Counted from the stretch's first letter, positions 43,201 through 57,724 are shown. The stretch: DNA of 64,000 nucleotides from Candidatus Palauibacter poriticola (GCA_012270965.1 JAAXHJ010000066.1:29183-93182); one strand, 5' to 3'. The notes: generated from the sequence alone by a model not told the origin. Translations and numbers: made by a program.

Positions 43201-43457
43201 ACCTCATCCTCCACGTGGGCGAGGCGGTTGCGCAGTCGCACGGCCCTCTCCCTCGCCTCGGCCAGCATCTCGCGCAGGCGGCGGTTCTCCGCCGTCACCG
43301 CCTTGAGCCGCGCCTCGATGCCGGGGGTCGCCGATCCGTTCTCGTCCCAAGTCCGGGGTTCCTCCCAGTGCGTCTCGATCCTGCCCACCGCCCGCGACAG
43401 GCGGTCGAGCAGCCGTTCGACTCTCCGTTGACGGTCAGGACCGCCGGATTCTGGCAT
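43197..43457 (-). CDS. coiled-coil protein (ZapB-like), overlapping zapA by 4 nt
   Basis: Heptad-rich ARLKAVTAENRRLREMLAEARERAVRLRNRLAHVEDEV; start uncertain (ATG 43457 or 43508). Confidence 0.5.
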   Translation of the reverse strand: MPESGGPDRQRRVERLLDRLSRAVGRIETHWEEPRTWDENGSATPGIEARLKAVTAENRRLREMLAEARERAVRLRNRLAHVEDEV

Positions 43458-46014
43458 CGAACCGTTTCTCCAAGGCGGCGGAGAGGGCGGACATCTCCGA
43501 TTCGACATCCCCGTCCGTGAGCGTACGGTCGGGAGCCCTGAAGCGAAACGTCCATGCCAGTCCGAGGCGGCCGCCCTCGATCTCTTCGCCCGAGTAGACG
43601 TCGAAGAGTTGCACGTCGCGCAGGAGATCCGATGTCGCTTCCCTCGCCGCCCGCTCGACGTCAGCGGCCGGGACGCCTCGCGGCACCGTCATCGAGAGGT
43701 CCCGGCGCACGGCCGGGAAGGGCGACGTCTTCCGGTAGGCGGGCACGGTGCGCCCCTCGACGGCGGCGAGATCGAACTCGAGCCCGAAGGCGGGCGCGGC
43801 CCAAGGAGGAGCGTCGAGGGACGCCCCGTCCACGGCTCCCGCGACGCCGACCACGCGACCCTCCTTCACGGCCCGGAACCCGCCGGGGGAGAGCCAGGGT
43901 CCCGCGAGCGGCGCTCCACTCTCCGGCGCGTCCGCGGTCGCGGCGGTTCCGGCGGTATCGGCGCCCTCGAGCGGCTCCAGCGTCGCCCCGCACAGGCGCT
44001 CCGCGAACGACGCGGCGATCTCCTTGAGATCCCACAAGTCGAAGTCGAGCCCCGGTCCAGACCAGTGATCCGGGCGCCGGGCTCCGGTGACGATGGCCCC
44101 CACTCTGCCGGACTCCTCGAAGCGGCCGGTTCCCTCCGCATCCCCTTCCGAACCCGGGCCGCCCGCGTACGCGAACACGGTGCCGAGTTCGAACAGGCGT
44201 ACGTTGCGGTTGCCGCGCGCGTAATTGTGTTCCAGCCGCCGAAGCAGCACCGGGACCATGGCGGAGCGGAGGCGACTCTCCTCGGCCGAGAGCGGGTTCG
44301 GGACCGAGACGACGGCGCGATTCCCCCGGTAATCCTCCGGCATGAAGCTCAGACTGCGCGCTTCGAGGAGTCCGCGTCCGGTGAGCATCTCCCGCACTCT
44401 GGCCGCCTGTTCGACGCGCGGATCCGCCGGCACCGCGCTGGGCCGGAACCTGCGGTCCTGGCCCGCCCCGGCGTCGTACCCCACCCGGCGCGCAACTTCC
44501 TCCACGAGATCGATCTCCCGCGCGACGTCCGTGCGCCAGCCGGGCACGGAGACGCGCAACACGTCACCTGTCCCGTCCGCGCCACCGCCACCGGCCACGC
44601 CAACGTCACCGCCCACAGCATCGCTACCGTCCACGGCATCGCTACCGTCTCCGGCGTCGCCGCCGTCCGCGCCGGGGAGGGCCTCGAAGCCGATCGGCTC
44701 GAGCGCGGCGAGGACCTCCGCCCCGCCCAAGCCGAAGCCGAGCACCTGGTTCACGCGACTCACGCGAACCTCGATCGGGGGGACCGGGGCCGGCGCCGGG
44801 CCCGCGCGGAGGCCGACGAGGTCCGCCTCGCCGCCCGCCGTGGCGAGGATGAGGTCCACGCACCGCGCGAGCGCCCGCTCCTGGGCGTGGACATCGATCC
44901 CCCGCTCGAAGCGGTACGATGCGTCGGTGGAGAGCCCCGCCCCCGTCCGGGTGCGGCGCACGCCGGCCGGATCGAACGACGCACACTCGATGAGCAGATC
45001 GACGGTGTCACTCGTCACCTCCGTGTCGAGCCCCCCCATCACACCCGCGAACGCGATCGCGCGATCGCGGTCGGCGATTACCGTCTGCTCGGGCGTGAGC
45101 TTGTGCTCCTGGCCATCGAGCGTGGTCAGCGGCTCGCCCGCCACGGCCGCGCGCACGCGGATCACCGCCCCGGGCAGCCGCGCGAGGTCGAAGGCGTGCA
45201 GCGGTTGGTTCTGCTCGTGGAGGACGTAGTTCGTCGCGTCGACGACGTTGCTGATCGGACGGGCGCCCACTGCGAGCAGCCGGCCCGCGAGCCACGCCGG
45301 CGACGGCCCGACCCTGACCCCCCGGATGACGGCGGCCATGTAGCGGGGACACCGGTTGAGATCCTCGATGCGGACCGTGACCCCGGCTCCGCTCGCCCCG
45401 GACTCGCCGTCCCGCCACTCGGGCGACCACACCGGCCCCCCGAAATCGCGCGGCGCCGGCGGCCACCCCACCTCCCGCGCGACCCCCATGTGGCAGGCGA
45501 GATCGACCCGGTTCGGGTTCAGGTCCAGCGTGAGACGGGTGTCGGGGAGGCCCAGCGCCGCCGCGAGCGGCGTTCCCGGCTCGAGCCCGTCGGCGAGGCG
45601 CATGATGCCCCCCTTGTCGCGGCCCAACTCCAGTTCGGCCTCCGAGCACAGCATGCCGTGACTCAATTCGCCGCGGATCTTCCGGCTCTCGATGCGGAAG
45701 CCGGCGGGGAGTTGGCCGCCGGGCGCCACATGCGGATAGACCCCCCCGGCGGCGATGACGGGAGCCCCGCACACCACGTCGAGCACCTCGCCGGAGCCCC
45801 GGTCCACCCTGCACACGGTGAGGCGGTCGGCGTTCGGGTGCGGGCGGGTCTCGATGACGCGGGCCGCGACGATCCCCTCCAGCCCCTCCCCCACGGTCTC
45901 GACCTTCTCCACCGCGGCGGCGGTCATCGTCAGGCGCTGGGCCAGAACCCTCGGGTCGCGCAACTCCCCGCGCAGTCCGGCCAGCTCGTCGATCCAGTTG
46001 AACGAGATGTTCAT
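43435..46014 (-). CDS. pheT: phenylalanine--tRNA ligase beta subunit, carrying a Gly/Asp-rich low-complexity insertion
   Basis: [14 protein letters not shown]... tRNA-binding, B3/4, B5 and FDX-ACB domains; insertion GADGGDAGDGSDAVDGSDAVGGDVGVAGGGGADGTGDV. Confidence 0.9.
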   Translation of the reverse strand: MNISFNWIDELAGLRGELRDPRVLAQRLTMTAAAVEKVETVGEGLEGIVAARVIETRPHPNADRLTVCRVDRGSGEVLDVVCGAPVIAAGGVYPHVAPGGQLPAGFRIESRKIRGELSHGMLCSEAELELGRDKGGIMRLADGLEPGTPLAAALGLPDTRLTLDLNPNRVDLACHMGVAREVGWPPAPRDFGGPVWSPEWRDGESGASGAGVTVRIEDLNRCPRYMAAVIRGVRVGPSPAWLAGRLLAVGARPISNVVDATNYVLHEQNQPLHAFDLARLPGAVIRVRAAVAGEPLTTLDGQEHKLTPEQTVIADRDRAIAFAGVMGGLDTEVTSDTVDLLIECASFDPAGVRRTRTGAGLSTDASYRFERGIDVHAQERALARCVDLILATAGGEADLVGLRAGPAPAPVPPIEVRVSRVNQVLGFGLGGAEVLAALEPIGFEALPGADGGDAGDGSDAVDGSDAVGGDVGVAGGGGADGTGDVLRVSVPGWRTDVAREIDLVEEVARRVGYDAGAGQDRRFRPSAVPADPRVEQAARVREMLTGRGLLEARSLSFMPEDYRGNRAVVSVPNPLSAEESRLRSAMVPVLLRRLEHNYARGNRNVRLFELGTVFAYAGGPGSEGDAEGTGRFEESGRVGAIVTGARRPDHWSGPGLDFDLWDLKEIAASFAERLCGATLEPLEGADTAGTAATADAPESGAPLAGPWLSPGGFRAVKEGRVVGVAGAVDGASLDAPPWAAPAFGLEFDLAAVEGRTVPAYRKTSPFPAVRRDLSMTVPRGVPAADVERAAREATSDLLRDVQLFDVYSGEEIEGGRLGLAWTFRFRAPDRTLTDGDVESEMSALSAALEKRFDARIRRS

Positions 46015-47045
46015 GCGAACTGCTGCAGAAAGCTCATCTCCCCCTCGTAGAGGAGCCGCATGTCGGGGATGCCGTGCCGCACCATCGCGATGCGGGCCGG
46101 TCCCATCCCGAACGCATAGCCCGTGTAGCGTTCCGGGTCGTACCCCACCGCCTCGAAGACGGCGGGATCCACCATCCCGCTACCCATGATCGTGATCCAT
46201 CCCGTGCGCTTGCAGGTGGAGCAGCCGCTCCCGGCGCACACGGCGCACGACACGTCCACCTCCGCCGAGGGTTCGGTGAAGGGATAGAAGGACGGCCGGA
46301 AGCGGCTCGCCGTCCCCGGGCCGAAGAAATGGCGTACGAAGTGCTCGATCGCGGCGCGGAACTCGACGAAATCCACCCCTTCATCGACCGCGAGACCCTC
46401 GATCTGCTCGAAGGCGGGAGCGTGCGAGGGGTCGAAGGAGTCGCGCCGGTAGGCGAGCCCCGGCACGACGACCCGCACGGGCGGCCGGAAGGCCTCCATC
46501 ACGCGCGCCTGGACGGGCGACGTGTGCGTCCGCAACACGACATCCTTGTCCAGGTAGAAGGTGTCCATCATGTCGGCGGCGGGGTGATCGAGCGGGATGT
46601 TGAGCGCGGTGAAGTTGTACCACGTGGACTCGATCTCGGGGCCGAGCACGCGCGTGAAGCCGAGTTCCGCGAAGATCTCGCAGATCTCGTCGATGACCCG
46701 GGTCACGGGATGCACGCCACCGACCCAGCGCCCGCGCGCGGGAAGGGTCAGATCGATGCCGTCGACCGGAGCGGCGGCGGCGCTCTCCAGCGCCTTCATC
46801 CGCTCCTCGAGGGCTCCGCGCAGCACCTTCTTCACGGCGTTTGCGCGCTGTCCGACATCGCGCCGGGCCGCGGCTTCCACGGTGCCGATCCGGGACATGA
46901 CGTCGGCCAACTGGCCGTTGCGGCCCAGATATTCGACGCGGGCGGACTCGAGCGTGGCGGCGTCCGCCGCCTCCCCGATCGCGACGAGCCCCTTCTCCTC
47001 GATCGCGGCGAGCCGGTCGAGGAGAGAAGCTCCGGCCGCGATCAT
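46011..47045 (-). CDS. pheS: phenylalanine--tRNA ligase alpha subunit
   Basis: Class II motifs ([29 protein letters not shown]); ATG overlaps the rplT stop (ATGA). Confidence 0.9.
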
Positions 47046-47398
47046 GGGCCGTGCGCTTTGGCCACCTCGACGAGCTTGGTAAAGGCGGCCGGATCCCGAA
47101 TCGCGAGGTCCGCGAGCACCTTGCGGTTCAGGTCGACGCCGGCGCTCTTCAGCCCGCTCACAAACCGGGAATACGACATTCCGTTCTGCCGGGCCGCGGC
47201 GTTGATGCGGGCGATCCACAGCCGGCGGAAGTCGCGCTTCCTCCTGCGCCGATCGACGTAGGCGTAGGCCCAGCCGCGCTCGACCGAGTTCTTCGCCGTA
47301 CGATAGAGCTTCGACCGCGCTCCGAACTGGCCGCGGGCTTCCTTGAGGATCTTCTTCTTTCGACGGTTGCGTGCAACACTGCTCGTCGCGCGTGGCAT
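47042..47398 (-). CDS. rplT: 50S ribosomal protein L20
   Basis: [70 protein letters not shown]. Confidence 0.9.
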
Positions 47399-47461
47399 GG
47401 CCGCACCTCCTGATTCCTGATACCGAGACTGTCTTGGGTACTGCCCGGGGAATGGGGTGAG

Positions 47462-47656
47462 CTAGTTCCCCAGGAGCCGCTTCACCCGCTTCTCGTCCGC
47501 CTTCGCCACAAGGGTTCCCTGACGGAGCCGGCGCTTACGCTTGGGGCTCTTCTTCGTCAGGATGTGGCTGTGGTAGGCACGCCGGCGCCGGAATTTCCCG
47601 CTCCCGGTCTTCCGAAACCGCTTCGCGGCGGACCGGTTCGTCTTCATTTTCGGCAT
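47462..47656 (-). CDS. rpmI: 50S ribosomal protein L35
   Basis: [33 protein letters not shown]. Confidence 0.9.
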
Positions 47657-47738
47657 CTTGCGTATGCTCCGGTTCAGCTCCGTCCGTGGCCGTCCGTGAC
47701 GGAGTCTTCGTGGTCGGTTCTCGTCGTTCCGGGGTCGA

Positions 47739-48251
47739 CTACGTGCGGTGCGGCCCCATCAGCATGGTCATCGTGCGACCCTCGTGAGAGATGTCCGACT
47801 CGACCATCGCGATGTCCCGCAGTTCGGTCTTCACGAACTCGAGAACCCGGCGCCCCCGCTCGGGGTGCGTCACCTCGCGCCCGCGAAACATGAGCGTGAA
47901 CTTCACCTTGTCGCCATCACCGAGGAATCTGCGCGCGTGGCGCAGCTTGAAGTCGATGTCGTGCGTCTCGATCTTCGGACGCAGCTTCACTTCCTTGACG
48001 GTGATGATGTGCTGCTTCTTCTTCGCCTCCCGCGCCTTCCTCGCCTGCGCGTATTTGTATTTTCCGAAGTCCATGAGCCGGCAGACGGGCGGCCGCGCGC
48101 CGGGCGCCACCTCCACCAGGTCGAGTCCGCGCTCGGCCGCGAGGGCACGGGCCTCATCCGTGGCCACGATGCCGAGCTGGCTGCCCTCCTCATCGATGAG
48201 ACGGATCGGGCTGATCCGGATCTTGTCGTTGACTCTGGGATCTCCGTTCAC
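47739..48251 (-). CDS. infC: translation initiation factor IF-3
   Basis: [19 protein letters not shown]...; GTG start with AAGGAG SD; the longer ORF to 49136 is not supported. Confidence 0.85.
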
Positions 48252-48680: not shown

Positions 48681-49877
48681 ATGCTGCCGGCAGCCCTCGG
48701 CGCCTGCGGGGGAGACACTGGACCAACACAAGCTGTCCAAGTCCGGACCTCGGACAGCGCTGGCGTGCGGATCGTCGAGTACTTGAGCGAGCCGGAGGTC
48801 GAGGCACCCTTCGCTCTGGCGGCGGAACCGCTGTACCGGCACGGCGCGAACCCGGGCGACTATGAGTTCCTGTCGGTCGACGCCGGCCGGCTCTTCCCGG
48901 ATGGAGGCGCGGTCGTCGCCGACTGGTACGGCGAAGTGGTCGTCTTGAGTCCGGACGGGACGACGCACCAAGTGCTCGCCAAGGTTGGAGAGGGACCAGG
49001 CGAAGTCGTCTCCCCCTACTCGGCGTTCGTCCTGGGTCAGGACAACGTCCTTGTGCCAGACAGTCGTCTGTCCCGCCTCACTCTCTTCGCCGGCGATTCG
49101 GTCGCGCGCATCGTGAGCCTCCCTCGGGCAGCCCACTTCGGTGTGGCGGGGATCGGTTCATCCGGTGAGCTGCTGCTCTGGAACCGATACCCCTACCGTT
49201 CCTGGTTCGATATCGAGGAGGACTGGCTCGTCGGACACATGACCCTGTTCGATACTGAAACCGGCACCCTCGACACGGTCGCGTCGTACGACCACTACCC
49301 GCGACAGCGGTCGGGGGTGGCGCGTCCGATTATCAACCCCGTTGGCGAGGTTACCGCCGCTGCGGGGCGGTTCGTCTACACGAGGTCCGACAGGCCCGAG
49401 ATCACTTGGCGGCTGCCGGACGGCACGGTGACGCAGATCGTTCGCTGGCGGCCCGAGCCCAACCTGCTAGCGGAGGAACTCCTGGAGCACGGCGAGGCGT
49501 ACAACCGGATGATCGGCCGGATGAACTACGGAGTATCCGAGGCTCGGCTCGAGGAGATCATTCAGGAAGACATGGCCCGGTATCGCGCCATGATCGGCCA
49601 GCCGGTGCCGTTCTTCGGCACCCCGTTCGCCGACGCCGACGGCAACGTGTGGCTCCCCTCCTTCCGGCCGGCCTACCCGCAAGAGGGGTCGCCGTACACC
49701 GTCATTTCCCCGGACGGAGAGTGGTTGGGACGGGTTGAGACTCCGCCCAAGTTCCGAATCCTCGATGTGACCGGGGGACTCGTCCTCGGGGTACTCAGAG
49801 ACGAAACGGACGTGGAGAATGTCGTGGTGTACGGACTGGCAGGCGGACCGGCCGAGGGCTTCCGGCCTACCTCGTAA
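48681..49877 (+). CDS. hypothetical lipoprotein, probably a beta-propeller
   Basis: Lipobox MLPAALGACGG; repeated SPDG..W / beta-strand-rich segments. Confidence 0.6.
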   Translation: MLPAALGACGGDTGPTQAVQVRTSDSAGVRIVEYLSEPEVEAPFALAAEPLYRHGANPGDYEFLSVDAGRLFPDGGAVVADWYGEVVVLSPDGTTHQVLAKVGEGPGEVVSPYSAFVLGQDNVLVPDSRLSRLTLFAGDSVARIVSLPRAAHFGVAGIGSSGELLLWNRYPYRSWFDIEEDWLVGHMTLFDTETGTLDTVASYDHYPRQRSGVARPIINPVGEVTAAAGRFVYTRSDRPEITWRLPDGTVTQIVRWRPEPNLLAEELLEHGEAYNRMIGRMNYGVSEARLEEIIQEDMARYRAMIGQPVPFFGTPFADADGNVWLPSFRPAYPQEGSPYTVISPDGEWLGRVETPPKFRILDVTGGLVLGVLRDETDVENVVVYGLAGGPAEGFRPTS

Positions 49878-50331
49878 GCACCCCGCTTATGGTTAGGAAC
49901 CCGCAGTGGTCCGTGTTGGCTCCCAAGTACAACTCGGCAGCGTTACCTCGAAACGCCAAGCTGGAATCGGTGGTCGTGACGGTCCCGCAGGTCGCATCCT
50001 CCCACGGTTCATTGTCGGAAGCGCCTCCGGTCGTCACGAATCCCGTTTGGTTGACGGTCCCCGTCCGGGCGGGGAGCTGCAGCACCTCTCCGGCGGCCGT
50101 CACGCTTCCGCTGAACGTAACCTGTGCGCCCGACTGGACGACGTTCAGAGTCATGGGGAAGTCGGCCGAGCCTGCGAAGGCCGACATCCGCAGCGTTACG
50201 AAGCCGGTGTATGTCCCGGCCACTTGAGGGTATTCGGGAGCCGGCGGCGCCGTGGGCTCCCCGCCACCGCATGCCGTGATCAGAACTGCCGACACCACCC
50301 CGAGCAGGATCCGTCCTTCGGTGCTGGTCAT
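49867..50331 (-). CDS. small hypothetical lipoprotein
   Basis: ATG with AGGAGG SD; lipobox VLITACGGG; Thr/Gly-rich beta-type sequence. Confidence 0.55.
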   Translation of the reverse strand: MTSTEGRILLGVVSAVLITACGGGEPTAPPAPEYPQVAGTYTGFVTLRMSAFAGSADFPMTLNVVQSGAQVTFSGSVTAAGEVLQLPARTGTVNQTGFVTTGGASDNEPWEDATCGTVTTTDSSLAFRGNAAELYLGANTDHCGFLTISGVLTR

Positions 50332-50465: not shown

Positions 50466-53400
50466 CTATCGCCGCCACGCGCCGGGCTCCGGGAGCCCGC
50501 GGCTGAGCTGGACTTCGAACTCGGTGCCGCCCCCGAAGATCGCAGCCGCGTCGGCCAGCACGGCCTCCCGGTCCGGGGCGTCGCGGAGGATGCCCCGCAC
50601 CGACCCGCTGCCGGGATCGCGCACGATGGCCATGGGCAAATCGCTGGCACCGTCAAGGGTGACGGAGCCGCCCGGGCCCGAAAGCGTGAGCGAGACGAGG
50701 TCGCGCTCCCACGCGGCTCTCATGGGGAGCACGAAGACAAACCCGGCGCCGCCGTCCGTGTCGGCCGCCTCCCGCATTGCGAAGTCGAGCGAGAAGAGCT
50801 CCGTGCCGTCCGCCGCGTACCCGGTAAGCCGGTGTTCGCCATCGGCTTCGGGGAGGAGCGGAGGGGCGTCGACGGCGAACGCCGGTTCGAGATACAATCC
50901 CCCATCCGGTCTGACGCCTCCCCACAGAAGGAGCGACTTCGCCGGAGCGCCTGGTGCCGCCGCCCCCTCCGAAATCAGCCGGTGCCCCAATGCGTTCGTG
51001 AAGTGGTAATCGCTGACCCACTCGGGATCGCAATAGGACATGAGATCCGGGCGGGATGGGGAGACCAAGCTTCCCCGGCCGAAATCATACCCCCACGCGC
51101 CGATCGATCCGTCCGCGTAGGGGAAGGAGGGATCGACACCGGCGGGGTCCCCGCACGGCGCATGCCGAAGATTCATGTTGTGGCCGAGTTCGTGCGCTAC
51201 GACGCTGGCGTAGGGTTGGGCGAAGCTCGACGTTCCGGGGCGATGCGCCACGCCGCCGATGTTGCGGCTAAGGGGGGCGACCATCATTCCCATGTAATGT
51301 CCGCCGCCGCCCTCGATGGCTCGAATCGCCGCCGTCTCGCCGAGCAGAACGTACGGGTCGTTGCTTGCGCTCAGCACCGGATCGTGGGCCGTTACGGAGA
51401 GGTCCCCCACCGGTAGGAGCGTTCGGGTATCCTCCAGCATATGGTGGCGCTCGGGGTCGGCGGCCACGGCACCCACCAGCCCTACAATCGACGAATCATA
51501 AGTCCCCGCCCACACAAACGGAATCACGGTGAGATCGAAGAGCGGCATCGCCCTGACTTCCACCGGCAGCCGACCCGTTTCGGGTATCCGTCGGGTGACG
51601 CCCAAGGCCGGATCCAACCTTCCCGACGGATCGACCTCCACGACCAGTTCCAGCCCCGGGTGAATCAGGTATCCCGGAATCTCGGCGTTGGATGACCGTG
51701 AGAGCAGGGCCTCGTTCACCTCGGTGGGGATCGCCGCGGACTTCGGCGGAATGTCCACCACGTGCGCCTCCCGCCCGTCGAGGAAAAGGCGGGCCCGCAC
51801 TTCCGGAATGCCCTGGCTGGTGGCGCGGGCGGCCGTCGGAAAGACGCGCAGCAGCGCCCTCTCGCCCGCAACCAGAGGAACGGGGTATTGTCGGGATTGC
51901 ACGGCCTGCGTCAGGTACGCCGCTCCTTCCCCAGCTGCGGTGCAGAAGGCGACGCGCCGTTTGGGGACGCCTTGCAGCCAAACACGGAAATCCGGATCCG
52001 AGGGTGCGCAGAGACTCGTGCCCCCGGCCATGAACTCGACGAGGCGCGTTAGGGACGTCATGTCCGCCGGGAGAACGCCCGCCATGCCAGCGTTGTTTGA
52101 CACATCGAGCTCCTCCAAGCTCACTAATTCCGCCAGCCGGGCCGGGATGGGGCCGCTGAGTCGGTTGTTGGCGAGCGACAACCAAGCGAGTTCCCGGAGA
52201 TTGCCCAGGTCGGGCGGAACTGGCCCCGTCAAACGGTTTCCGCCGAGATTCGCAAATGTGAGTGCAGTCAAGTTGCCGAGGGCGGTCGGAATCCCACCCG
52301 AAACTCGGGTGTCGTAGAGCCAGATTCCCGTAAGGCTGGTGAGGCGACCCAACTCGGACGGGATCGGACCCGTCAGATCATTGCCTCCCAAGGCGAGCGT
52401 CGTCAGGCTTCCGAGGTTCCCGAGCTCGGGCGGGATCGGGCCCGTTAGGCGGTTCCCGACGAGATTGAGCTCAGTCAGACGGACGAGGTTCCCCAGTTCC
52501 GGAGGGATCCTGCCGGTGAGTTCGTTCTGGCCGAGCCATAAATCCCGGACATTGACGAGGTCTCCGAGTTCAGGTGGGACCGGGCCCGTTAGCTCGTTGC
52601 CGGCGAGCCAGAGCCGAAAAAGACCGGCGAGATTCCCGAGGGCGGGCGGAATCCGCCCGGTGAGGCCCGTCCAATGAGCGTAGAGATAGTTCAGGTTCAC
52701 TAGGTTGCCCAACTCGGGCGGGATCGAACCCGTCAGGTCGTTGAAATTGATGGCAAGATACCAGAGGTTGGTGAGATTACCGAGTTCCGGCGGAATTCGC
52801 CCCGAAAGATCGTTGCCCCCCAAAGCGAGCAGCCCCAGGTTGGCAAGCTCGCCGAGCTCGGCGGGGATGCGACCTGACAGCTCGTTGTAACCAAGGTCCA
52901 AGTATTCCAAGCTGCCAATGGTGCCCAGTTCGGGAGGGATCGTGCCGGCCAAGCCGTTTCCAAGCCACCGAGAGGCATCGTCATCGTATACGTTGAGCCG
53001 GATCTCGGTGACCCGCCCGAGTGCGTTCGTCTCCACGCCGTACCATTCCCCGAGGGGTGCGGCGGTGAGCCAGCCGTCGTTGCGGTCCCAGTTCGGCCCG
53101 TCCGTCGCGTAATAGAGGGCCTCCAGAGCGTCGCGATCCGGGTTCACCACGGTGACCCGCGCCGTGCCGCGAGCCGTGCCCGCCGCCGCGGCAATCGTCG
53201 CCGTACCCTCCGCAGCCCCGGACACGACTCCGGACGAACTCACCGGGGCGACGGACGGAGCGCTCGACGACCACGCGAACTCCGCTCCTTCGACCGGGTG
53301 GCCGTTGGCGTCGTGCGCCGTCGCCGAAAGACGAAGCGTGTCGCCGGGTCCGAGCGTTGGAGCGGCGGGAAGCACCGCGACCGAGCGCGGCTCCTGTGCG

Positions 53401-54407
53401 ACGCGCACGGTCCCGGTCCCCGACGCGGAGCCCTCGGACCCGGAATACGTCGCCGTGATCGTCGCCGTCCCGTTGCGAACGGCCGTCGCGAGCCCGGACG
53501 CGGCCACTCTGACGACCGATGGCGCGCTGCTCGCCCACGTCACGGCGGCCCCGGGGATGACTCGCCCGGCGGGGTCTCGCACCTCCGCCGACAGCCGCAG
53601 GCTGGCGTCGATGGCCGTGAGCTGCGCATTGGGAGGGGTTACGGTTACGACCGGCGCCGGACGGCGCACGGTGACGCCGAACGCCTGGCTGGCGCTCGTG
53701 CCGTCGGTGTCGGTCGCGACCACGGTGACCTGGACCTCGCCCGGTCCCACCCCGGTTACCGTCGCGATCGTCCCGGCCAGGGACACCGCCACGACCGTCG
53801 TTCTGGACGAGATGGCCGTGTGGGTCAGCGCGTCGCCATCCGGGTCGCTGAACGCGCCGGTAAGGTCGACGGTTCTCGCCGCGCCCTCGAGGAGTTCGAG
53901 CGCGGGAATCGTGTCCATCGCCGTCGGCGGACGGTTGGGCACCGTGACCGCGAAGGACAGCTGGGCGCTCAGACCGCCGCCGTCCGTTGCGGACACCGTC
54001 ACCACCGCGCGGCCCTTGCCGACCGCCGTCACGGTCACCAGCCCGCTCGCCAGGGCAACCGCGACGACTTCCACGTCGGAACTCGTGGCGGCGAAGGAGA
54101 GGGCGTCGCCGTCGGGGTCCGAGAAAGCTCCCGAGATGCGGATCGACGCCGTATCGCCCACGTGTACTTCAACGGGCGCAAGTGAGGCCGTGGCCGCGGG
54201 CGGACGGTTGGGCGGCGGTGGGGGCGGAGGAGGAGGTCCGGCAGGCTCCCCGCCGCACGAGCCGACGAGGGCCGCGGCGGCGGTTGCCAAGATGGGGATG
54301 GTCGCCGTCACGTGGCGCGACCCCGGGCGACGGGGGCGCACAGCTCCAGTCCACCGCTGGAGCCGTTGGATGCCGCACGGGGTGTGGGTTCCTTCGCTGG
54401 GGAGCAT
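50466..54407 (-). CDS. giant surface lipoprotein: 2 cadherin-like domains, Big_2 domains, ~14 plant-type LRRs, C-terminal metzincin-like metallopeptidase domain
   Basis: Lipobox ILATAAAALVGSCGG, then PPPPPPPPPNRPP; cadherin-like DxDxDxL(T/S) motifs (SGAFSDPDGDALSF, TGAFSDPDGDALTH); LRR prefix DRDALEALYYATDGPNWDRNDGW; LRR consensus LxxLxLxxNxLTGxIPPELGNL repeated; zinc site VVAHELGHNMNLRHA (HExxHxxxxxH) and Met-turn DLMSY; start either ATG 54407 or GTG 54341. Confidence 0.8.
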   Translation of the reverse strand: MLPSEGTHTPCGIQRLQRWTGAVRPRRPGSRHVTATIPILATAAAALVGSCGGEPAGPPPPPPPPPNRPPAATASLAPVEVHVGDTASIRISGAFSDPDGDALSFAATSSDVEVVAVALASGLVTVTAVGKGRAVVTVSATDGGGLSAQLSFAVTVPNRPPTAMDTIPALELLEGAARTVDLTGAFSDPDGDALTHTAISSRTTVVAVSLAGTIATVTGVGPGEVQVTVVATDTDGTSASQAFGVTVRRPAPVVTVTPPNAQLTAIDASLRLSAEVRDPAGRVIPGAAVTWASSAPSVVRVAASGLATAVRNGTATITATYSGSEGSASGTGTVRVAQEPRSVAVLPAAPTLGPGDTLRLSATAHDANGHPVEGAEFAWSSSAPSVAPVSSSGVVSGAAEGTATIAAAAGTARGTARVTVVNPDRDALEALYYATDGPNWDRNDGWLTAAPLGEWYGVETNALGRVTEIRLNVYDDDASRWLGNGLAGTIPPELGTIGSLEYLDLGYNELSGRIPAELGELANLGLLALGGNDLSGRIPPELGNLTNLWYLAINFNDLTGSIPPELGNLVNLNYLYAHWTGLTGRIPPALGNLAGLFRLWLAGNELTGPVPPELGDLVNVRDLWLGQNELTGRIPPELGNLVRLTELNLVGNRLTGPIPPELGNLGSLTTLALGGNDLTGPIPSELGRLTSLTGIWLYDTRVSGGIPTALGNLTALTFANLGGNRLTGPVPPDLGNLRELAWLSLANNRLSGPIPARLAELVSLEELDVSNNAGMAGVLPADMTSLTRLVEFMAGGTSLCAPSDPDFRVWLQGVPKRRVAFCTAAGEGAAYLTQAVQSRQYPVPLVAGERALLRVFPTAARATSQGIPEVRARLFLDGREAHVVDIPPKSAAIPTEVNEALLSRSSNAEIPGYLIHPGLELVVEVDPSGRLDPALGVTRRIPETGRLPVEVRAMPLFDLTVIPFVWAGTYDSSIVGLVGAVAADPERHHMLEDTRTLLPVGDLSVTAHDPVLSASNDPYVLLGETAAIRAIEGGGGHYMGMMVAPLSRNIGGVAHRPGTSSFAQPYASVVAHELGHNMNLRHAPCGDPAGVDPSFPYADGSIGAWGYDFGRGSLVSPSRPDLMSYCDPEWVSDYHFTNALGHRLISEGAAAPGAPAKSLLLWGGVRPDGGLYLEPAFAVDAPPLLPEADGEHRLTGYAADGTELFSLDFAMREAADTDGGAGFVFVLPMRAAWERDLVSLTLSGPGGSVTLDGASDLPMAIVRDPGSGSVRGILRDAPDREAVLADAAAIFGGGTEFEVQLSRGLPEPGAWRR

Positions 54408-54487
54408 CGCGGTTCCTCGCAGGCGTCCCACGGGTGAATGATTACGCCGGGGCCGGGAGAGTGCGCCCTCCCGGCCCCCGGCGGAGG

Positions 54488-57400
54488 TCAGCGAATCCTG
54501 AGTGCCCAGACCGAGACGTGGCCGGGCGCGGGCGCGCCATTGGACGAGGTCACCTTGAGGCTGGTCGGCGCCATGCCGCCCCCCGGCGTCCAGTGAAGAT
54601 AGAAGGAGGAGCCGGCGCGGACGTTCCACGAGCCCTTGAAAGCGGCGTGCGAGGAGGTCCACGGGAGGAGCCGGGCGCTCTCGACGAAGTTGCTGAAGAT
54701 ATCGTAGAGGTTCCAAGAGGTCATGCCAACGGAGTTCCAGACGCGGCCATCGGTCCACAGTGACATGTAGAAGTTTGCAAGGATCCCCTCGATGGGCTCG
54801 CCGCCGACATCCTCCAAGGACGCGAACCCAACTTGCGGCGACTGTGTGAGACGCTTCATTAGTGCCTGTTCGCCGCCGGGGTAATCCCCACCCCAGCGGT
54901 CCATCGCGGATCTGAGGACCATGGAGGGGACGCCGTACACGGCATTGCCGAGACACGGGCCATCGTTCCCCTCGCTGGCCCGGCCGATCCAAGTGCACTC
55001 TTCCGGGGCACCGACAGTGCGGTCGCCGCCGCTCCCGCCCCAGCCGAAGAAGTAGGCCATGTCGGCAACCCACGCGTGAAGGTACCAGTTACCCCCGGCC
55101 TGATACTCGTCATAGTCCAGATCCCGGTTCGACCCGTGCCCGAACAGCCGGTAGGCGACCAGCTGCTGCGCCAAGCTGGCTCCGCCTTCGACCTCCCAGC
55201 TCGTCTTGAAGTCGGCCGACCCCAGCACCTGGGCGTTTGCCTGCACCAAGTGGGTGACTTCGTGGGTCAGGAGCTGCGGATAGAAATCGAGCAGGCTCTG
55301 CTTCGTCGTCGCCTGTCCAACGATGCCCGCCGGATCGGGCACTTGGACGTATGTAATCTCAGCCTCGTTGCTCGTCGCGCAGTCGGAGACCGGATAGAGA
55401 TCCGCCCATGAGACCCAGCCCCCCGCATTTTCGACGCGATTCACCTCCTGGGTCATGAGGACGAGTATCCGTCCGTTCCCGTCCACGTCGGACAGGGCCC
55501 CAAAGTAGCCGTCGAGCACCGGAGCGGTATGCCGGGTCAAAAACGCGTCAAGACCGGAGAGTTCCGCGTCGGTGAAGGTTCCGCTCGGATTCGCGATGTC
55601 GTCCAGCCAGATGCCGGTATCTCCGACGAGCCGGACCACGGCGCGAACCTGGGTGGACTGCCGGCAGGTCCGGTTGGGGTCGGCGTAGAGGGTCACCGTG
55701 TCGCCGCGCGCGTAGTTCACGGTGTCGGCGAGCGCGTCCACTGTTCGAGCCGGCCATTCGGGCGGACCCAAGCGCCGCGCCAAGCTGCGATTGCGCTCCA
55801 TGATCTCGTCGTGCCGACGCCGGTCGCGCGGTGGCCCGAGAGCCTCTTGATCAAGGTCCGCCGGCACCCCTCGTCCGGCCGCGTCGAATCGCGGCACCCC
55901 GGTCCCGCCCAAGTCCGCAGGCGCGAACGCCTGCGAGGCGGCGAGGAGGTGTGCCACCACGCCGCTGCCCTCGGCGGCCACGGTGGGATCGCCCGGGGTG
56001 CCCGTCATCGTGACCGGGGTCAGCGAGGACGGTACCTCCGAGGTCGAAACGACGCCGATCAGATACTCGGCCCCCGTCGCGGAACGAGGCAGGTGGAGAC
56101 ATCCGTTCCCGGCGTACGTGTAGAGGTACCAGCCCGCGGGAAGCGCAAGATCCTCCTCCCGCGCCGGGGTCACGCCGACCGCCGCGGCATCGTTCCGGCC
56201 GAACGCTGTGACGCTCAGCTGGACCGTCCGGGGCGGCAGGCAGTCGGCGTACGGCACGTCGATCACGAGGCTGGTCGCGCTTGCCGCAGTCACCGTAGCG
56301 GCGAGACCGCCGATCAGAACCTCGTTCTCGCCCGGCACCGACGCGAAACCCTGTCCGTGGATCGTCGCCGACTCGCCCTCCACGAGCACGGGTGGCTGCA
56401 CTCCCGTAATCCTCACAGGCACCGGCTCCCGCACGGACACGGCCAGCGTTTGGGTTGCGCTCAGGCCTCCACCGTCGGTCGCCACCGCCGTCACGACGGC
56501 ATCGCCCGCACCCACCGCAGCCACCGTCACGACGGTCCCCGACACCGTAACCGAAGCCACGCCGGCCTTCGATGACGTGGCCGTGTGGCTCAGCGCGTCG
56601 CCGTCCGGGTCGCTGAACGCGCGGGAGATGTCGACGGTCCGCGACTCGCCGACGATCAGGTCGAGGCCGGGAAGCGTGCCCACCGCCGCCGGGGCGCGGT
56701 TGGGGACGGTGACCGCGAAGCTCTGTTCCGCGCTCAGTCCGCCGCCGTCGGTCGCCGTCACCGTCACGACCGCCCTGCCCTGCGACGCCGCCGTCACCGT
56801 AACCACGCTGCCCGTGGTCGAGGCGGTCGCCACGGCCACGTCGGTGGAGGACGCCGCGTAGGTCAGGGCGTCGCCGTCCGGGTCGCTGAACGCACCCGAC
56901 ACCTCCACCGTCCGCGACTCGCCGACGGCGACCTCGATCCCGGGAAGCGTGCCCACCGTCGCGGGCGCGCGATTGATGACGGAGACCTCGAAGGCCTGCC
57001 GCGCACTGAGCCCGTCCGGGTCGGACGCCGTAACGGTCAACGTCGAGCTTCCCTGCCCCACACCGGTGACCGTCACCACGGACCCCGACGCCGCACCCGC
57101 CGCCACGGCGTCGTTCGACGAGGCGACGGCGAAGGTCAGCGCGTCGCCGTCCGGATCCGCGAACGCCCCCGACACATCCACCGCCTCGGTCTCGCCGATC
57201 GCGAGTTCCACGACGGGAAGCGTCCCAACGGCGGCGGGGGCGCGATTGGGCACCGTCACACCGAAGCTCTGCTGTGCGCTCAACCCGCCGCCGTCCGTCG
57301 CGGTTACGGTCACCGTCGCCGACCCCTTCGCCGCAGCCGTCACCGTCACCGAGGCACCCGACACGGAGACGGTTGCCACGCCCACGTTCGAGCTCGCCGC

Positions 57401-57724
57401 CGTGTACGTCAGCGCGTCCCCATCCGGGTCGCTGAACGCCCCCGACACGTCGACCGAAGCCGTCCCACCCACCTCCACCTGGACCGAGGGCAGTGCCCCC
57501 ACGGCGGTCGGCGCGCGATTGGGCGGGGGAGGCGGCGGCGGGGGAGGCGGCGCCGGGCCGGCGGTCCCCCCGCCGCACGCGGCGGACAACACCGCGGCGA
57601 ATCCGAACAGCACGGCGCACACGGTAGTCCTTGGTGCGAGCAGGGCAAACGATGAACAGCGCGGTGCCCGGGACGGATCAAGTGACGCCGGGTTCATTAC
57701 TGTCCCTTTCGTTCGAGTCGCCAA
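54488..57724 (-). CDS. giant surface lipoprotein: 4 cadherin-like domains, IPT/TIG-like domain, C-terminal gluzincin-like HExxH domain
   Basis: Lipobox VLFGFAAVLSAACGGG, then P10; four ~90-aa repeats with NRAPxAVGxLP...SGAFSDPDGDALTY; IPT-like PVRITGVQPPVLVEGESATIHGQGF; LLTHEVTHLVQ then SWEVEGGASLAQQ (HExxH...EGxA); C-terminus VSVWALRIR. Confidence 0.8.
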   Translation of the reverse strand: MATRTKGTVMNPASLDPSRAPRCSSFALLAPRTTVCAVLFGFAAVLSAACGGGTAGPAPPPPPPPPPPNRAPTAVGALPSVQVEVGGTASVDVSGAFSDPDGDALTYTAASSNVGVATVSVSGASVTVTAAAKGSATVTVTATDGGGLSAQQSFGVTVPNRAPAAVGTLPVVELAIGETEAVDVSGAFADPDGDALTFAVASSNDAVAAGAASGSVVTVTGVGQGSSTLTVTASDPDGLSARQAFEVSVINRAPATVGTLPGIEVAVGESRTVEVSGAFSDPDGDALTYAASSTDVAVATASTTGSVVTVTAASQGRAVVTVTATDGGGLSAEQSFAVTVPNRAPAAVGTLPGLDLIVGESRTVDISRAFSDPDGDALSHTATSSKAGVASVTVSGTVVTVAAVGAGDAVVTAVATDGGGLSATQTLAVSVREPVPVRITGVQPPVLVEGESATIHGQGFASVPGENEVLIGGLAATVTAASATSLVIDVPYADCLPPRTVQLSVTAFGRNDAAAVGVTPAREEDLALPAGWYLYTYAGNGCLHLPRSATGAEYLIGVVSTSEVPSSLTPVTMTGTPGDPTVAAEGSGVVAHLLAASQAFAPADLGGTGVPRFDAAGRGVPADLDQEALGPPRDRRRHDEIMERNRSLARRLGPPEWPARTVDALADTVNYARGDTVTLYADPNRTCRQSTQVRAVVRLVGDTGIWLDDIANPSGTFTDAELSGLDAFLTRHTAPVLDGYFGALSDVDGNGRILVLMTQEVNRVENAGGWVSWADLYPVSDCATSNEAEITYVQVPDPAGIVGQATTKQSLLDFYPQLLTHEVTHLVQANAQVLGSADFKTSWEVEGGASLAQQLVAYRLFGHGSNRDLDYDEYQAGGNWYLHAWVADMAYFFGWGGSGGDRTVGAPEECTWIGRASEGNDGPCLGNAVYGVPSMVLRSAMDRWGGDYPGGEQALMKRLTQSPQVGFASLEDVGGEPIEGILANFYMSLWTDGRVWNSVGMTSWNLYDIFSNFVESARLLPWTSSHAAFKGSWNVRAGSSFYLHWTPGGGMAPTSLKVTSSNGAPAPGHVSVWALRIR

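Follow-up and report, generated by a model that had tools for sequence, protein, structure and literature searches.

The window analyzed here is a 64,000-nucleotide stretch of DNA from Candidatus Palauibacter poriticola. Between positions 50466 and 54407, counted from its first letter, it holds a single gene with the features listed below (basis of the assignment in brackets where it is not self-evident).

50466..54407 (-): whole gene of 1313 codons and a stop
54255..54407 (-): lipobox-bearing signal peptide (aa 1-51), with RPRRPGSRH as n-region, TATIPILATAAAALVGS as h-region and Cys51 as the lipidated residue
54198..54254 (-): Gly/Pro spacer with the nine-proline run GGEPAGPPPPPPPPPNRPP (sequence)
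53658..54197 (-): pair of Ig domains of cadherin-like type (Big_9 / Cadherin_4), both carrying the motif SGAFSDPDGDAL (Pfam)
53148..53645 (-): two Big_2 bacterial Ig-like domains (Pfam)
52986..53147 (-): LRR N-terminal cap, DRDALEALYYATDGPNWDRNDGWLTAAPLGEWYGVETNALGRVTEIRLN (sequence motif)
52050..52985 (-): LRR solenoid assigned to the plant-specific class, 12 exact units (aa 475-762) and one degenerate unit (aa 763-786) (repeat phasing)
51921..52049 (-): final LRR unit, degenerate, followed by the C-terminal cap (Cys800, Cys822), LCAPSDPDFRVWLQGVPKRRVAFC (sequence)
51591..51920 (-): conserved beta-rich domain before the catalytic domain, aa 830-939 (tblastn, model)
50931..51590 (-): predicted metzincin catalytic domain, aa 940-1159 (AF2 model, Foldseek, Pfam M66)
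51162..51194 (-): zinc-binding motif HELGHNMNLRH, aa 1072-1082 (His1072, Glu1073, His1076, His1082)
51030..51047 (-): Met-turn segment DLMSYC, with Met1123 (alignment)
50469..50930 (-): C-terminal beta-sandwich domain, aa 1160-1313 (model, related loci)

Start codon, lipoprotein signal and Ig-like domains

An earlier note on this DNA had described the locus as encoding a lipoprotein in which a plant-like LRR is fused to a metzincin, and our analysis supports all three of these elements. The gene is a single intact open reading frame, and the 1313-residue product counted from ATG 54407 occurs verbatim in public collections, on metagenome contigs. Delimited mechanically, the open reading frame (50466-55073, (-)) is longer than the gene; the neighbouring gene upstream ends with its stop at 54488, so the true start is ATG 54407 or an in-frame GTG downstream of it. 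The sequence GAGGA lies 6 nt upstream of ATG 54407, and two alternative starts, GTG 54341 and GTG 54311, fall within the signal region.

That the product is a lipoprotein is indicated by the lipobox core (ATAAAALVGS/C) together with the PROSITE rule PS51257, which matches in full from GTG 54341 only: from that start the Cys stands at position 29 and an Arg is found in the first seven residues. Counted from ATG 54407 the Cys comes at position 51, later than the 15-35 that the rule allows, with the basic stretch kept. The suggestion that the choice between these two starts would decide the charge of the n-region proved incorrect: RPRRPGSRH is present in both, and the choice sets only the length of the n-region (33 residues from ATG 54407, 11 from GTG 54341). 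The basic stretch is lost only with the third candidate, GTG 54311. Whichever start is used the mature protein from Cys51 is identical, a lipoprotein of ∼130 kDa with a pI of 4.7. The adjoining gene opens with the same lipobox-CGG-polyPro-NR(A/P)P module.

Four Ig-like domains, absent from the earlier note, separate the signal peptide from the LRR, at aa 67-420. Pfam finds both types in two stretches each: Big_9 at 30.5 bits (cut-off 23.6) and Big_2 at 74.9 bits (E = 4.9e-21).

The leucine-rich repeat and its caps

The LRR begins with a cap, whose motif DRDALEALYYATDGPNWDRNDGWLT starts at aa 424 (nt 53138), and continues as 12 units of 24 residues in exact register (aa 475-762; nt 52985-52122). 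Two to three degenerate units besides, one leading and two trailing, bring the total to ∼14-15, in good agreement with the description of a cap followed by a 24-residue unit repeated about 14 times. The stretch holding the last degenerate LRR and the C-terminal cap is kept in the A1 and A2 consensus sequences. Pfam, too, recognises LRR families in the protein.

The repeat consensus, xLxxLxLxGNxLTGxIPPELGNLx, is 24 residues long. LRRs of the plant-specific (PS) class are likewise built from a 24-residue unit, with the consensus LxxLxLxxNxL(T/S)GxIPxxLGxLxx. The unit of the bacterial class, from which the repeat here differs, has 20-21 residues with the pattern xxLPxLPxx (PMC5976695). Among solved structures the closest relatives of the LRR are GSO1 (E = 3e-155) and FLS2 (E = 1.6e-130), and the best 40 all come from plants, being ectodomains of LRR receptors; no bacterial LRR appears before Leptospira LIC11098, at 6e-47. 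By both repeat consensus and nearest relatives the LRR is therefore assigned to the plant-specific class, and the proposal that it is plant-type rather than bacterial-type stands. Given the E-value of the LRR match, and the conservation of the catalytic residues described below (invariant His, near-invariant Glu and Met), neither the repeat nor the zinc motif is due to chance.

The likeness to plant LRR receptor-kinase ectodomains (GSO1, FLS2, MIK2, PEPR1 and BRI1; E-values from 3e-155 to 1e-69) extends beyond the shared LxxLxLxxNxL(T/S)GxIPxxLGxL unit to a variable concave face set upon an invariant scaffold. In our protein aromatic residues fill 15 of 55 x positions of the concave face and none of 209 positions elsewhere (Fisher p = 1e-11). 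Unlike the plant receptors, however, the protein is bacterial, carries its lipid anchor at the N-terminus, has its LRR fused to a protease and possesses neither a transmembrane helix nor a kinase.

The cap also differs. The segment returns no match to Pfam LRRNT_2, or to any Pfam family at E ≤ 10, and the Cys pair of the plant-type N-cap is absent, there being no Cys anywhere in aa 52-799. Judged on these features it is not a plant LRRNT_2 cap; its motif is common among the bacterial relatives (80 of 149 representatives and 48 of 99 genome copies). The helix-W-WxGV-GRVxxL pattern of the cap resembles a plant cap by eye only.

The protease module

The C-terminal module of the protein comprises three domains, two of which, the beta-rich domain and the C-terminal beta-sandwich, correspond to no Pfam family. 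The first was seen by tblastn in 81 loci, its beta strands being predicted with low confidence; the second is present in 80 related loci and was modeled with pLDDT of ∼80-94 in the first model. Between them lies HELGHNMNLRH, the sole HExxHxxxxxH of the window in any frame. All 150 aligned homologues have its three histidines (H1072, H1076, H1082), and 149 have E1073. M1123, also kept in 149, stands 41 residues past His1082 and is followed by a C-terminal helix. Cys1126 is likewise kept in 149 of the 150 and Cys1085 in 131, and the two are probably joined by a disulfide. The canonical Gly of HExxHxxGxxH is replaced by Asn; in homologues the position is held by Ser (86), Asn (46) or Gly (10), Ser and Asn together accounting for 88% of aligned relatives. 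It is possible that the change from Gly to Asn alters the turn on which the placing of the third His depends.

The first model of the full module was poor (pLDDT 60.7, falling under 50 between the third His and the Met-turn). The catalytic fold of the metzincins (clan MA(M)) consists of a sheet of five strands, backing and active-site helices, and a lower subdomain that has a C-terminal helix. An AF2 model of aa 940-1165 reached a pLDDT of 88.5 and a pTM of 0.86 and shows the classical order of strands and helices. Searched against the PDB with Foldseek it gave 99 matches at E ≤ 1e-3, of which the best 50 are without exception catalytic domains of adamalysins, ADAMs or fragilysin (probability 1.00; best E = 6e-7; TM 0.5-0.58). 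On the evidence of motif, Met-turn and fold matching of the model, the catalytic domain is predicted to be a metzincin. The earlier note had pointed to a metzincin signature with a Met-turn, and HELGHNMNLRH, DLMSYC, a Pfam M66 match and these fold matches bear it out.

The adamalysins and ADAMs (M12B) and fragilysin (M10C) are thus the best structural matches, and share with our protein the HELGHN that opens the motif. Profile matches at the zinc motif are weak, and fall below the Pfam cut-offs: 17-18.6 bits for Reprolysin_3 (cut-off 22.4) and 17-18.4 for Reprolysin_5 (cut-off 27). Identity is 11-16%, the spacing from third His to Met is here 41 residues, and no disintegrin, Cys-rich or adamalysin-type prodomain was detected. 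Going by the model, the resemblance to adamalysin M12B lies at the level of fold only.

Family, function and competing explanations

Contrary to the implication of the earlier note that such a fusion is rare, it is the norm within a very large family. Clustered at 50% identity, relatives form at least 4856 clusters when the cut-off is E ≤ 1e-3, and 1284 when it is E ≤ 1e-30; LRRs (four or more of the same type) are found in 127 of the best 149 representatives, and in 84 of 99 copies at genome loci the LRR lies in the same reading frame. Members occur in Gemmatimonadota, Acidobacteriota, Gammaproteobacteria, Latescibacterota and other phyla, and tandem arrays of paralogs are found in complete Palauibacter and Longimicrobiales genomes and also in sponge MAGs of other phyla. 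The gene is an ordinary member of this family, which is common to sponge-associated bacteria of several phyla.

Palauibacter (Gemmatimonadota) is a sponge- and coral-associated genus that takes in irciniicola, rhopaloidicola and poriticola (PMC10469786). The window encodes an L35 identical to the one in Ca. Palauibacter soopunensis and an L20 that shares a 90% cluster with many Palauibacter species. For the present organism, host association would follow from these relatives; the sample (ERZ27298222) carries no sponge label. In the same kinds of organisms genes for eukaryote-like LRR proteins, and for cadherin domains, are enriched in sponge MAGs and laterally shared; they have been read as attachment factors, and studies of LRRs in sponge symbionts tally Pfam LRR domains and consider how host phagocytosis may be modulated (PMC8163846). 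A search of the literature returned no paper noting that the LRR belongs to a lipoprotein metalloprotease as its N-terminal part.

The analysis shows the domain composition, LRR class, metzincin fold, conserved catalytic residues, family size and taxonomic spread. We conclude with good confidence that the gene encodes a lipid-anchored, multidomain, predicted zinc endopeptidase, putatively exposed at the cell surface of a Candidatus Palauibacter bacterium. The protein would be exported by the Sec pathway and then lipidated at Cys51, after which a rigid spacer of prolines, together with the four Ig-like domains, would hold the functional end off the membrane. The LRR solenoid (14-15 units), with its concave face rich in Trp, Tyr and Phe, may serve as an exosite for a protein ligand, and the C-terminal module (beta domain, metzincin catalytic domain and beta-sandwich, in that order) would cleave the bound or a neighbouring protein. 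In the putative active site His1072, His1076 and His1082 would hold the zinc, Glu1073 would act as general base and Met1123 would form the turn. The likely role is proteolysis guided by the LRR and directed at host or matrix proteins, the presumed targets being proteins of a sponge host or of its extracellular matrix.

Three other explanations deserve attention. The catalytic domain might be that of a genuine M66 mucinase, specific for O-glycoproteins in the manner of E. coli StcE or Vibrio TagA and trimming mucin-like host glycoproteins. Peptidase_M66 is the only protease family to exceed its Pfam cut-off (29.8 bits over the full protein, 31.3 over the C-terminal module; cut-off 20.6), and NCBI already names relatives 'M66 family metalloprotease'. 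Our protein and StcE share a zinc motif, HExGHNxxLxH followed by WG(Y/W)D: hhalign sets HELGHNMNLRH...WGYD on the HEVGHNYGLGH...WGWD of StcE. StcE and TagA (M66, PF10462) are, like our protein, multidomain and of secreted or lipoprotein type, with a beta domain before the catalytic domain (a beta-sandwich in StcE) and another after it. The Pfam match, however, covers only model positions 174-250 of 306 (∼75), where StcE spans 1-305 at 282 bits, and the hhalign alignment has 46 columns and a probability of 37%. None of the StcE_b-sandwich, TagA and crystallin domains, all found in StcE, is detected here, nor did the flanking segments yield any of them at a cut-off as loose as E ≤ 10. When PDB sequences were searched by profile, snake-venom adamalysins came up and StcE did not; StcE is also missing from the best 50 fold matches, where adamalysins come first. 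The motif Gly is Asn or Ser, and the N-terminus carries an LRR of the plant-specific class and Ig-like domains. With only ∼75 of 306 model positions matched, the catalytic domain is peripheral to StcE, and we regard a StcE-type mucinase as unlikely.

Less probable again is that the protein is mainly an adhesin, attaching the cell by its Ig-like, cadherin-like and LRR domains to other cells or to the tissue of a host, with the metzincin-like domain inactive or serving in structure or binding. Some 830 of the 1313 residues do lie in binding-type domains, the zinc-motif Gly is lost, and the reading of symbiont cadherin-domain and LRR genes as attachment factors points the same way. Against this, the three His, the Glu and the Met are kept in 149-150 of 150 homologues, and the protease module is kept in all ∼80 loci while the N-terminal domains vary: a pattern that fits selection on catalysis. 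As for an effector injected into the host, akin to Xanthomonas XopAC, XopAE or XopL, or a plant LRR gene recently acquired, there is scarcely any likelihood of either. NCBIfam does return partial matches (XopAC 110 bits, XopAE 105, XopL 31.5) and the LRR is closest to plant receptor ectodomains; but the scores are far under the cut-offs (450, 600 and 500 bits, respectively), and the matches all lie inside aa 513-783, the cap-and-repeat region of the LRR. The signal is of Sec/lipoprotein and not of type III kind, the composition is bacterial (63% GC in the LRR segment and 69% in the window; GC3 0.75), and the same type of LRR is found in thousands of bacterial relatives. These observations effectively refute the effector and the recent plant gene alike.

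To return to the surface protease, a bolder proposal, which we offer only as a speculation with the odds clearly against it, is that the LRR-metzincin is a laterally shared factor of sponge and coral symbiosis: the LRR, by its hypervariable, aromatic-rich concave face, would recognise particular extracellular or immune-receptor proteins of the host and the tethered protease would cut them. If so, a symbiont could remodel the mesohyl matrix or escape phagocytosis, and the large paralog arrays would constitute a diversified recognition repertoire. The catalytic clade would then merit a peptidase family of its own, apart from M66, and many of the 'eukaryote-like LRR proteins' counted in genomes of sponge symbionts would be the targeting domains of surface proteases.

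The lipoprotein gene and its neighbours

The mechanical reading frame occupies 50466-55073 on the minus strand and the TGA of the upstream gene lies at 54490-54488 on the same strand; the true start of the target gene is therefore either ATG 54407 or an in-frame GTG farther in. Three in-frame candidates are present. These, together with the features of the encoded protein, are as follows:

ATG 54407, minus strand: ribosome-binding site GAGGA 6 nt upstream; lipobox Cys at position 51, outside the 15-35 window of PROSITE PS51257; basic n-region kept, 33 residues
GTG 54341, minus strand: ribosome-binding site GGAG just 2 nt upstream; lipobox Cys at position 29, all PS51257 conditions satisfied; basic n-region kept (MRPRRPGSRH)
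GTG 54311, minus strand: no evident ribosome-binding site; lipobox Cys at position 19; basic n-region lost
Signal peptide, minus strand: lipobox ...AAALVGS, followed by C51, at its end
Spacer after Cys51, minus strand: GGEPAG-P9-NRPP
aa 67-250: two cadherin-like Big_9 domains (Pfam)
aa ~255-420: two Big_2 domains (Pfam)
aa 424 (nt 53138), minus strand: LRR N-terminal cap DRDALEALYYATDGPNWDRNDGWLT
aa ~475-790: LRR families (Pfam)
aa 1049-1122: Peptidase_M66 (Pfam)

The protein carries a Sec/lipoprotein signal, a spacer and stalk domains, an LRR, and a metzincin fold with intact catalytic residues. From ATG 54407, the start used by public gene calls, the product is 1313 aa; public collections already contain an identical sequence, carried by metagenome contigs as long as 225 kb. 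The earlier note had held that the choice between ATG 54407 and GTG 54341 decides the charge of the n-region. This is wrong, because both starts retain RPRRPGSRH, and the mature protein is the same whichever start is used. Ahead of the ribosome-binding site, in the gap after the upstream gene's stop, is a GC-rich hairpin (ccgggggccgggag / ctcccggccccgg, 54446-54481, minus strand) that lacks a T tract. A promoter and terminator scan around the target gene gave nothing informative, and its consensus terminator search did not report this hairpin.

The upstream gene (54488-57724, minus strand) shares its opening module with the target – lipobox, CGG, poly-Pro, NR(A/P)P – and continues with four Big_9 domains and one TIG domain. 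The 553 C-terminal residues of its product match no Pfam or NCBIfam family and have no homologue in about 80 related loci; they contain HEVTH and give a weak match (E = 2e-5) to lugdulysin, a staphylococcal neutral metalloprotease. On these features, two lipoprotein metalloproteases of different class therefore adjoin. A third poly-Pro surface lipoprotein may be encoded at 61664-63670 (minus strand), where the predicted product has a run of nine prolines and then LATGCGG, around 63517.

Downstream, 135 nt from the target gene, is a gene for a small 154-aa lipoprotein (49867-50331, minus strand; MTSTEGRILLGVVSAVLITAC followed by GGG...). It matches no Pfam family, and its single NCBIfam match is weak and below cut-off; as a conserved partner or inhibitor it was rejected, there being no homologue in ~80 related loci. 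Between the target and infC-rpmI-rplT-pheS-pheT (43435-48251, minus strand), a housekeeping cluster whose position shows the locus to be chromosomal, lie this small gene and, on the opposite strand, an unnamed gene of 370 aa. The window is assigned to Ca. Palauibacter: its L35 has exactly the sequence of the Ca. Palauibacter soopunensis protein, and its L20 shares one 90% cluster with many Palauibacter species.

The LRR solenoid and the catalytic domain

Following the cap, which is where the earlier note had placed the opening of the LRR block, there are 12 units in exact 24-residue register (aa 475-762); one degenerate leading unit and two degenerate trailing units give a total of 14-15, in agreement with the 14 or so repeats that had been claimed. 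Cys800 and Cys822 are the two cysteines of the C-terminal cap. The consensus, xLxxLxLxGNxLTGxIPPELGNLx, is that of the plant-specific class of LRR. It differs from the "bacterial" class, which has 20-21 residues with xxLPxLPxx (PMC5976695). When all PDB chain sequences were searched, the best matches were plant receptor ectodomains (GSO1 at 3e-155 and FLS2 at 1.6e-130, then MIK2, RGFR, TDR, PEPR1, ERL and BRI1), while the first bacterial LRR, Leptospira LIC11098, reached just 6e-47. The 24-residue consensus and the wide lead of the plant ectodomains uphold the assignment to a plant rather than a bacterial type of LRR.

The cap itself has no cysteine pair and no Pfam LRRNT_2 match even at E <= 10. 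It recurs in bacterial relatives (80 of 149 cluster representatives, 48 of 99 genome copies), and is thus typical of this bacterial group, not of plants. With 63% GC in the LRR segment, against 69% in the window, and a GC3 of 0.75, the base composition is bacterial, and nothing suggests recent transfer from a plant. Scaffold positions of the repeats are nearly invariant, whereas the x positions of the LxxLxLxx strand are variable and carry the aromatics: 15 of 55 such positions are aromatic, compared with 0 of 209 elsewhere in the repeats (Fisher p = 1e-11). Judged from sequence, such a distribution is typical of a concave face that binds a ligand.

The catalytic domain contains HELGHNMNLRH at aa 1072, the sole HExxHxxxxxH across the six frames of the window. 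In an alignment of 150 catalytic-domain homologues, extended with divergent members by a second search seeded with a Latescibacterota copy, His1072, His1076 and His1082 are invariant; Glu1073, Met1123 and Cys1126 are each kept in 149 sequences, Asp1121 and Tyr1125 in 144, and Cys1085 in 131. Both the zinc motif and the Met-turn that had been read from the sequence are thereby confirmed. The canonical Gly of HExxHxxGxxH is replaced in most cases: Ser occurs 86 times, Asn 46 and Gly just 10.

Plain sequence search of the PDB with the C-terminal 494 aa gave no match, and a profile search only marginal adamalysin matches (E about 0.02) at the zinc motif. A first AF2 model, covering all 494 aa of the module (45 sequences), had a pLDDT of 60.7, with values below 50 from the third His to the Met-turn, and a fold search with it was weak (best match ADAM-8, 4.5e-3). 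Because it was poor in the key region, this model was replaced by one of the catalytic domain only (aa 940-1165, 150 sequences), with pLDDT 88.5 and pTM 0.86. Its elements run in the order strand, helix, helix, strands, long helix, strands, active-site helix, irregular lower half and C-terminal helix. Foldseek returned 99 PDB matches at E <= 1e-3; the top 50 were all catalytic domains of adamalysin, snake-venom metalloproteinases, ADAM-8/22/33/17 or fragilysin (probability 1.00, best E = 6e-7, TM 0.5-0.58). The metzincin fold proposed in the earlier note is thus recovered, and from these fold matches, together with the conserved His, Glu and Met residues, the catalytic domain is therefore a metzincin.

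Relation to M66 and rival readings

Pipelines already call relatives of the target "M66 family metalloprotease", a label that could be taken to mean a true StcE-like mucinase. Of the protease models in Pfam, only Peptidase_M66 does pass its cut-off (29.8-31.3 bits, the cut-off being 20.6), but the match covers only positions 174-250 of the 306 in the model, whereas StcE from pO157 aligns over positions 1-305 with 282 bits and has the StcE_b-sandwich, TagA and crystallin domains that are absent from the target. A family profile aligned with StcE over 46 columns (HELGHNMNLRH...WGYD on HEVGHNYGLGH...WGWD) at a probability of 37%. A tblastn search against the 'plasmids' collection missed StcE but picked up a Thermus thermophilus plasmid "M66 family metalloprotease" (34% identity over 295 residues, E = 2e-29), whose M66 match is also partial. 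The label rests on a short active-site segment and is not to be read as evidence for a StcE-like mucinase, which with a partial match and missing accessory domains we consider unlikely. On the model, the fold is nearest to adamalysins and fragilysin; the active-site segment is M66-like, and the domain lies on the periphery of M66 proper. The clade does not qualify for M66 over its full length and may warrant a separate family. The target is best described as a metzincin whose active-site segment is M66-like and whose function, like that of its entire family, is predicted.

That the protein is an adhesin carrying a dead protease is improbable, given the almost perfect conservation of the catalytic residues. 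An injected effector of the Xop type, or a gene derived from a plant, is rejected on the NCBIfam cut-offs, the signal type and the base composition; against a type III effector in particular, the scores with the Xop models fall far short of the cut-offs.

Distribution of the family and its predicted role

In a 90%-clustered database, over 1000 close relatives of the C-terminal module are found (the best 64% identical). A search of 1.84 billion 50%-cluster representatives gave 4856 matches with a threshold of E <= 1e-3, of which 1284 also pass E <= 1e-30. The best 149 representatives reach 2750 aa in length and all carry the protease module at the C-terminus; 127 have at least four LRR motifs of the plant-specific class, and 137 have the zinc motif. 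With reading frames extended in 99 genome copies (median ORF 1193 aa), the LRR is in frame with the protease in 84 and the zinc motif is present in 97. The three-domain protease module is strongly conserved; the N-terminal domains vary among relatives. Among these sequences the LRR-protease architecture is the norm in its clade.

Taxonomic spread was read from one-genome-per-species contigs. The family occurs in Gemmatimonadota (Ca. Palauibacter irciniicola, ramosifaciens and unnamed species, Longimicrobiales and others), in Acidobacteriota including Vicinamibacteria and Terriglobia, and in Gammaproteobacteria, Deltaproteobacteria, Opitutales and Latescibacterota. Many of the carrier MAG series (SB06xx, RHO, COS) are taken, judging by their labels and by PMC10469786 and PMC8163846, to come from sponge projects. 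At chromosome level, copies in Acidobacteriota, Gammaproteobacteria and Latescibacterota share 49-67% identity with those of Gemmatimonadota, a distance no greater than that among Gemmatimonadota paralogs. Some protease modules in MAGs binned as Deltaproteobacteria, Vicinamibacteria and Acidobacteriota reach 84-93% identity to Gemmatimonadota copies (locus pairs L046 and L050, L014 and L015, L026 and L030); these would represent either very recent transfer across phyla or mis-binned contigs.

In complete genomes, tandem arrays of Big_2-LRR-protease genes are found, on a 4.0-Mb contig of Ca. Palauibacter (locus L001) and on a 1.8-Mb contig (locus L002), the latter with four copies within 15 kb. 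In some copies IS elements or frameshifts separate the LRR from the protease, one copy being cut by a DDE transposase, which explains why many database homologues start inside the LRR. The split copies may be pseudogenes or may reflect long-read frameshift errors.

We infer that the target is lipid-anchored, with the protease held out from the cell; the LRR would serve as an exosite choosing a protein ligand, which the zinc protease would then cut. In a sponge- and coral-associated genus, plausible targets would be host matrix or receptor proteins. Genes with LRR and cadherin domains are enriched in sponge MAGs and laterally shared, and these MAGs are mostly without specialised secretion systems (PMC8163846); the proposed working fits these observations, and the ordinary Sec/lipoprotein signals of the family would answer the published puzzle of how the host is reached without specialised secretion. 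Literature searches found no description of an LRR fused to M66 or to a metzincin in sponge symbionts, and nothing relevant on M66 or PF10462 in these organisms. It is possible, and we put it forward only tentatively, that the members of the family are surface proteases guided by their LRRs and serve as a shared symbiosis factor.

Taken alone, the target gene is routine annotation: a multidomain surface metalloprotease, "M66 family" in pipelines. Eukaryote-like LRR proteins are, however, a much-cited genomic signature of sponge symbiosis, and in Palauibacter and several other phyla what that signature mostly represents is the binding arm of a predicted family of lipid-anchored zinc proteases, with thousands of members, tandem arrays and no separation by phylum. 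This would give the LRRs of sponge symbionts a concrete and testable role: substrate targeting for extracellular proteolysis.
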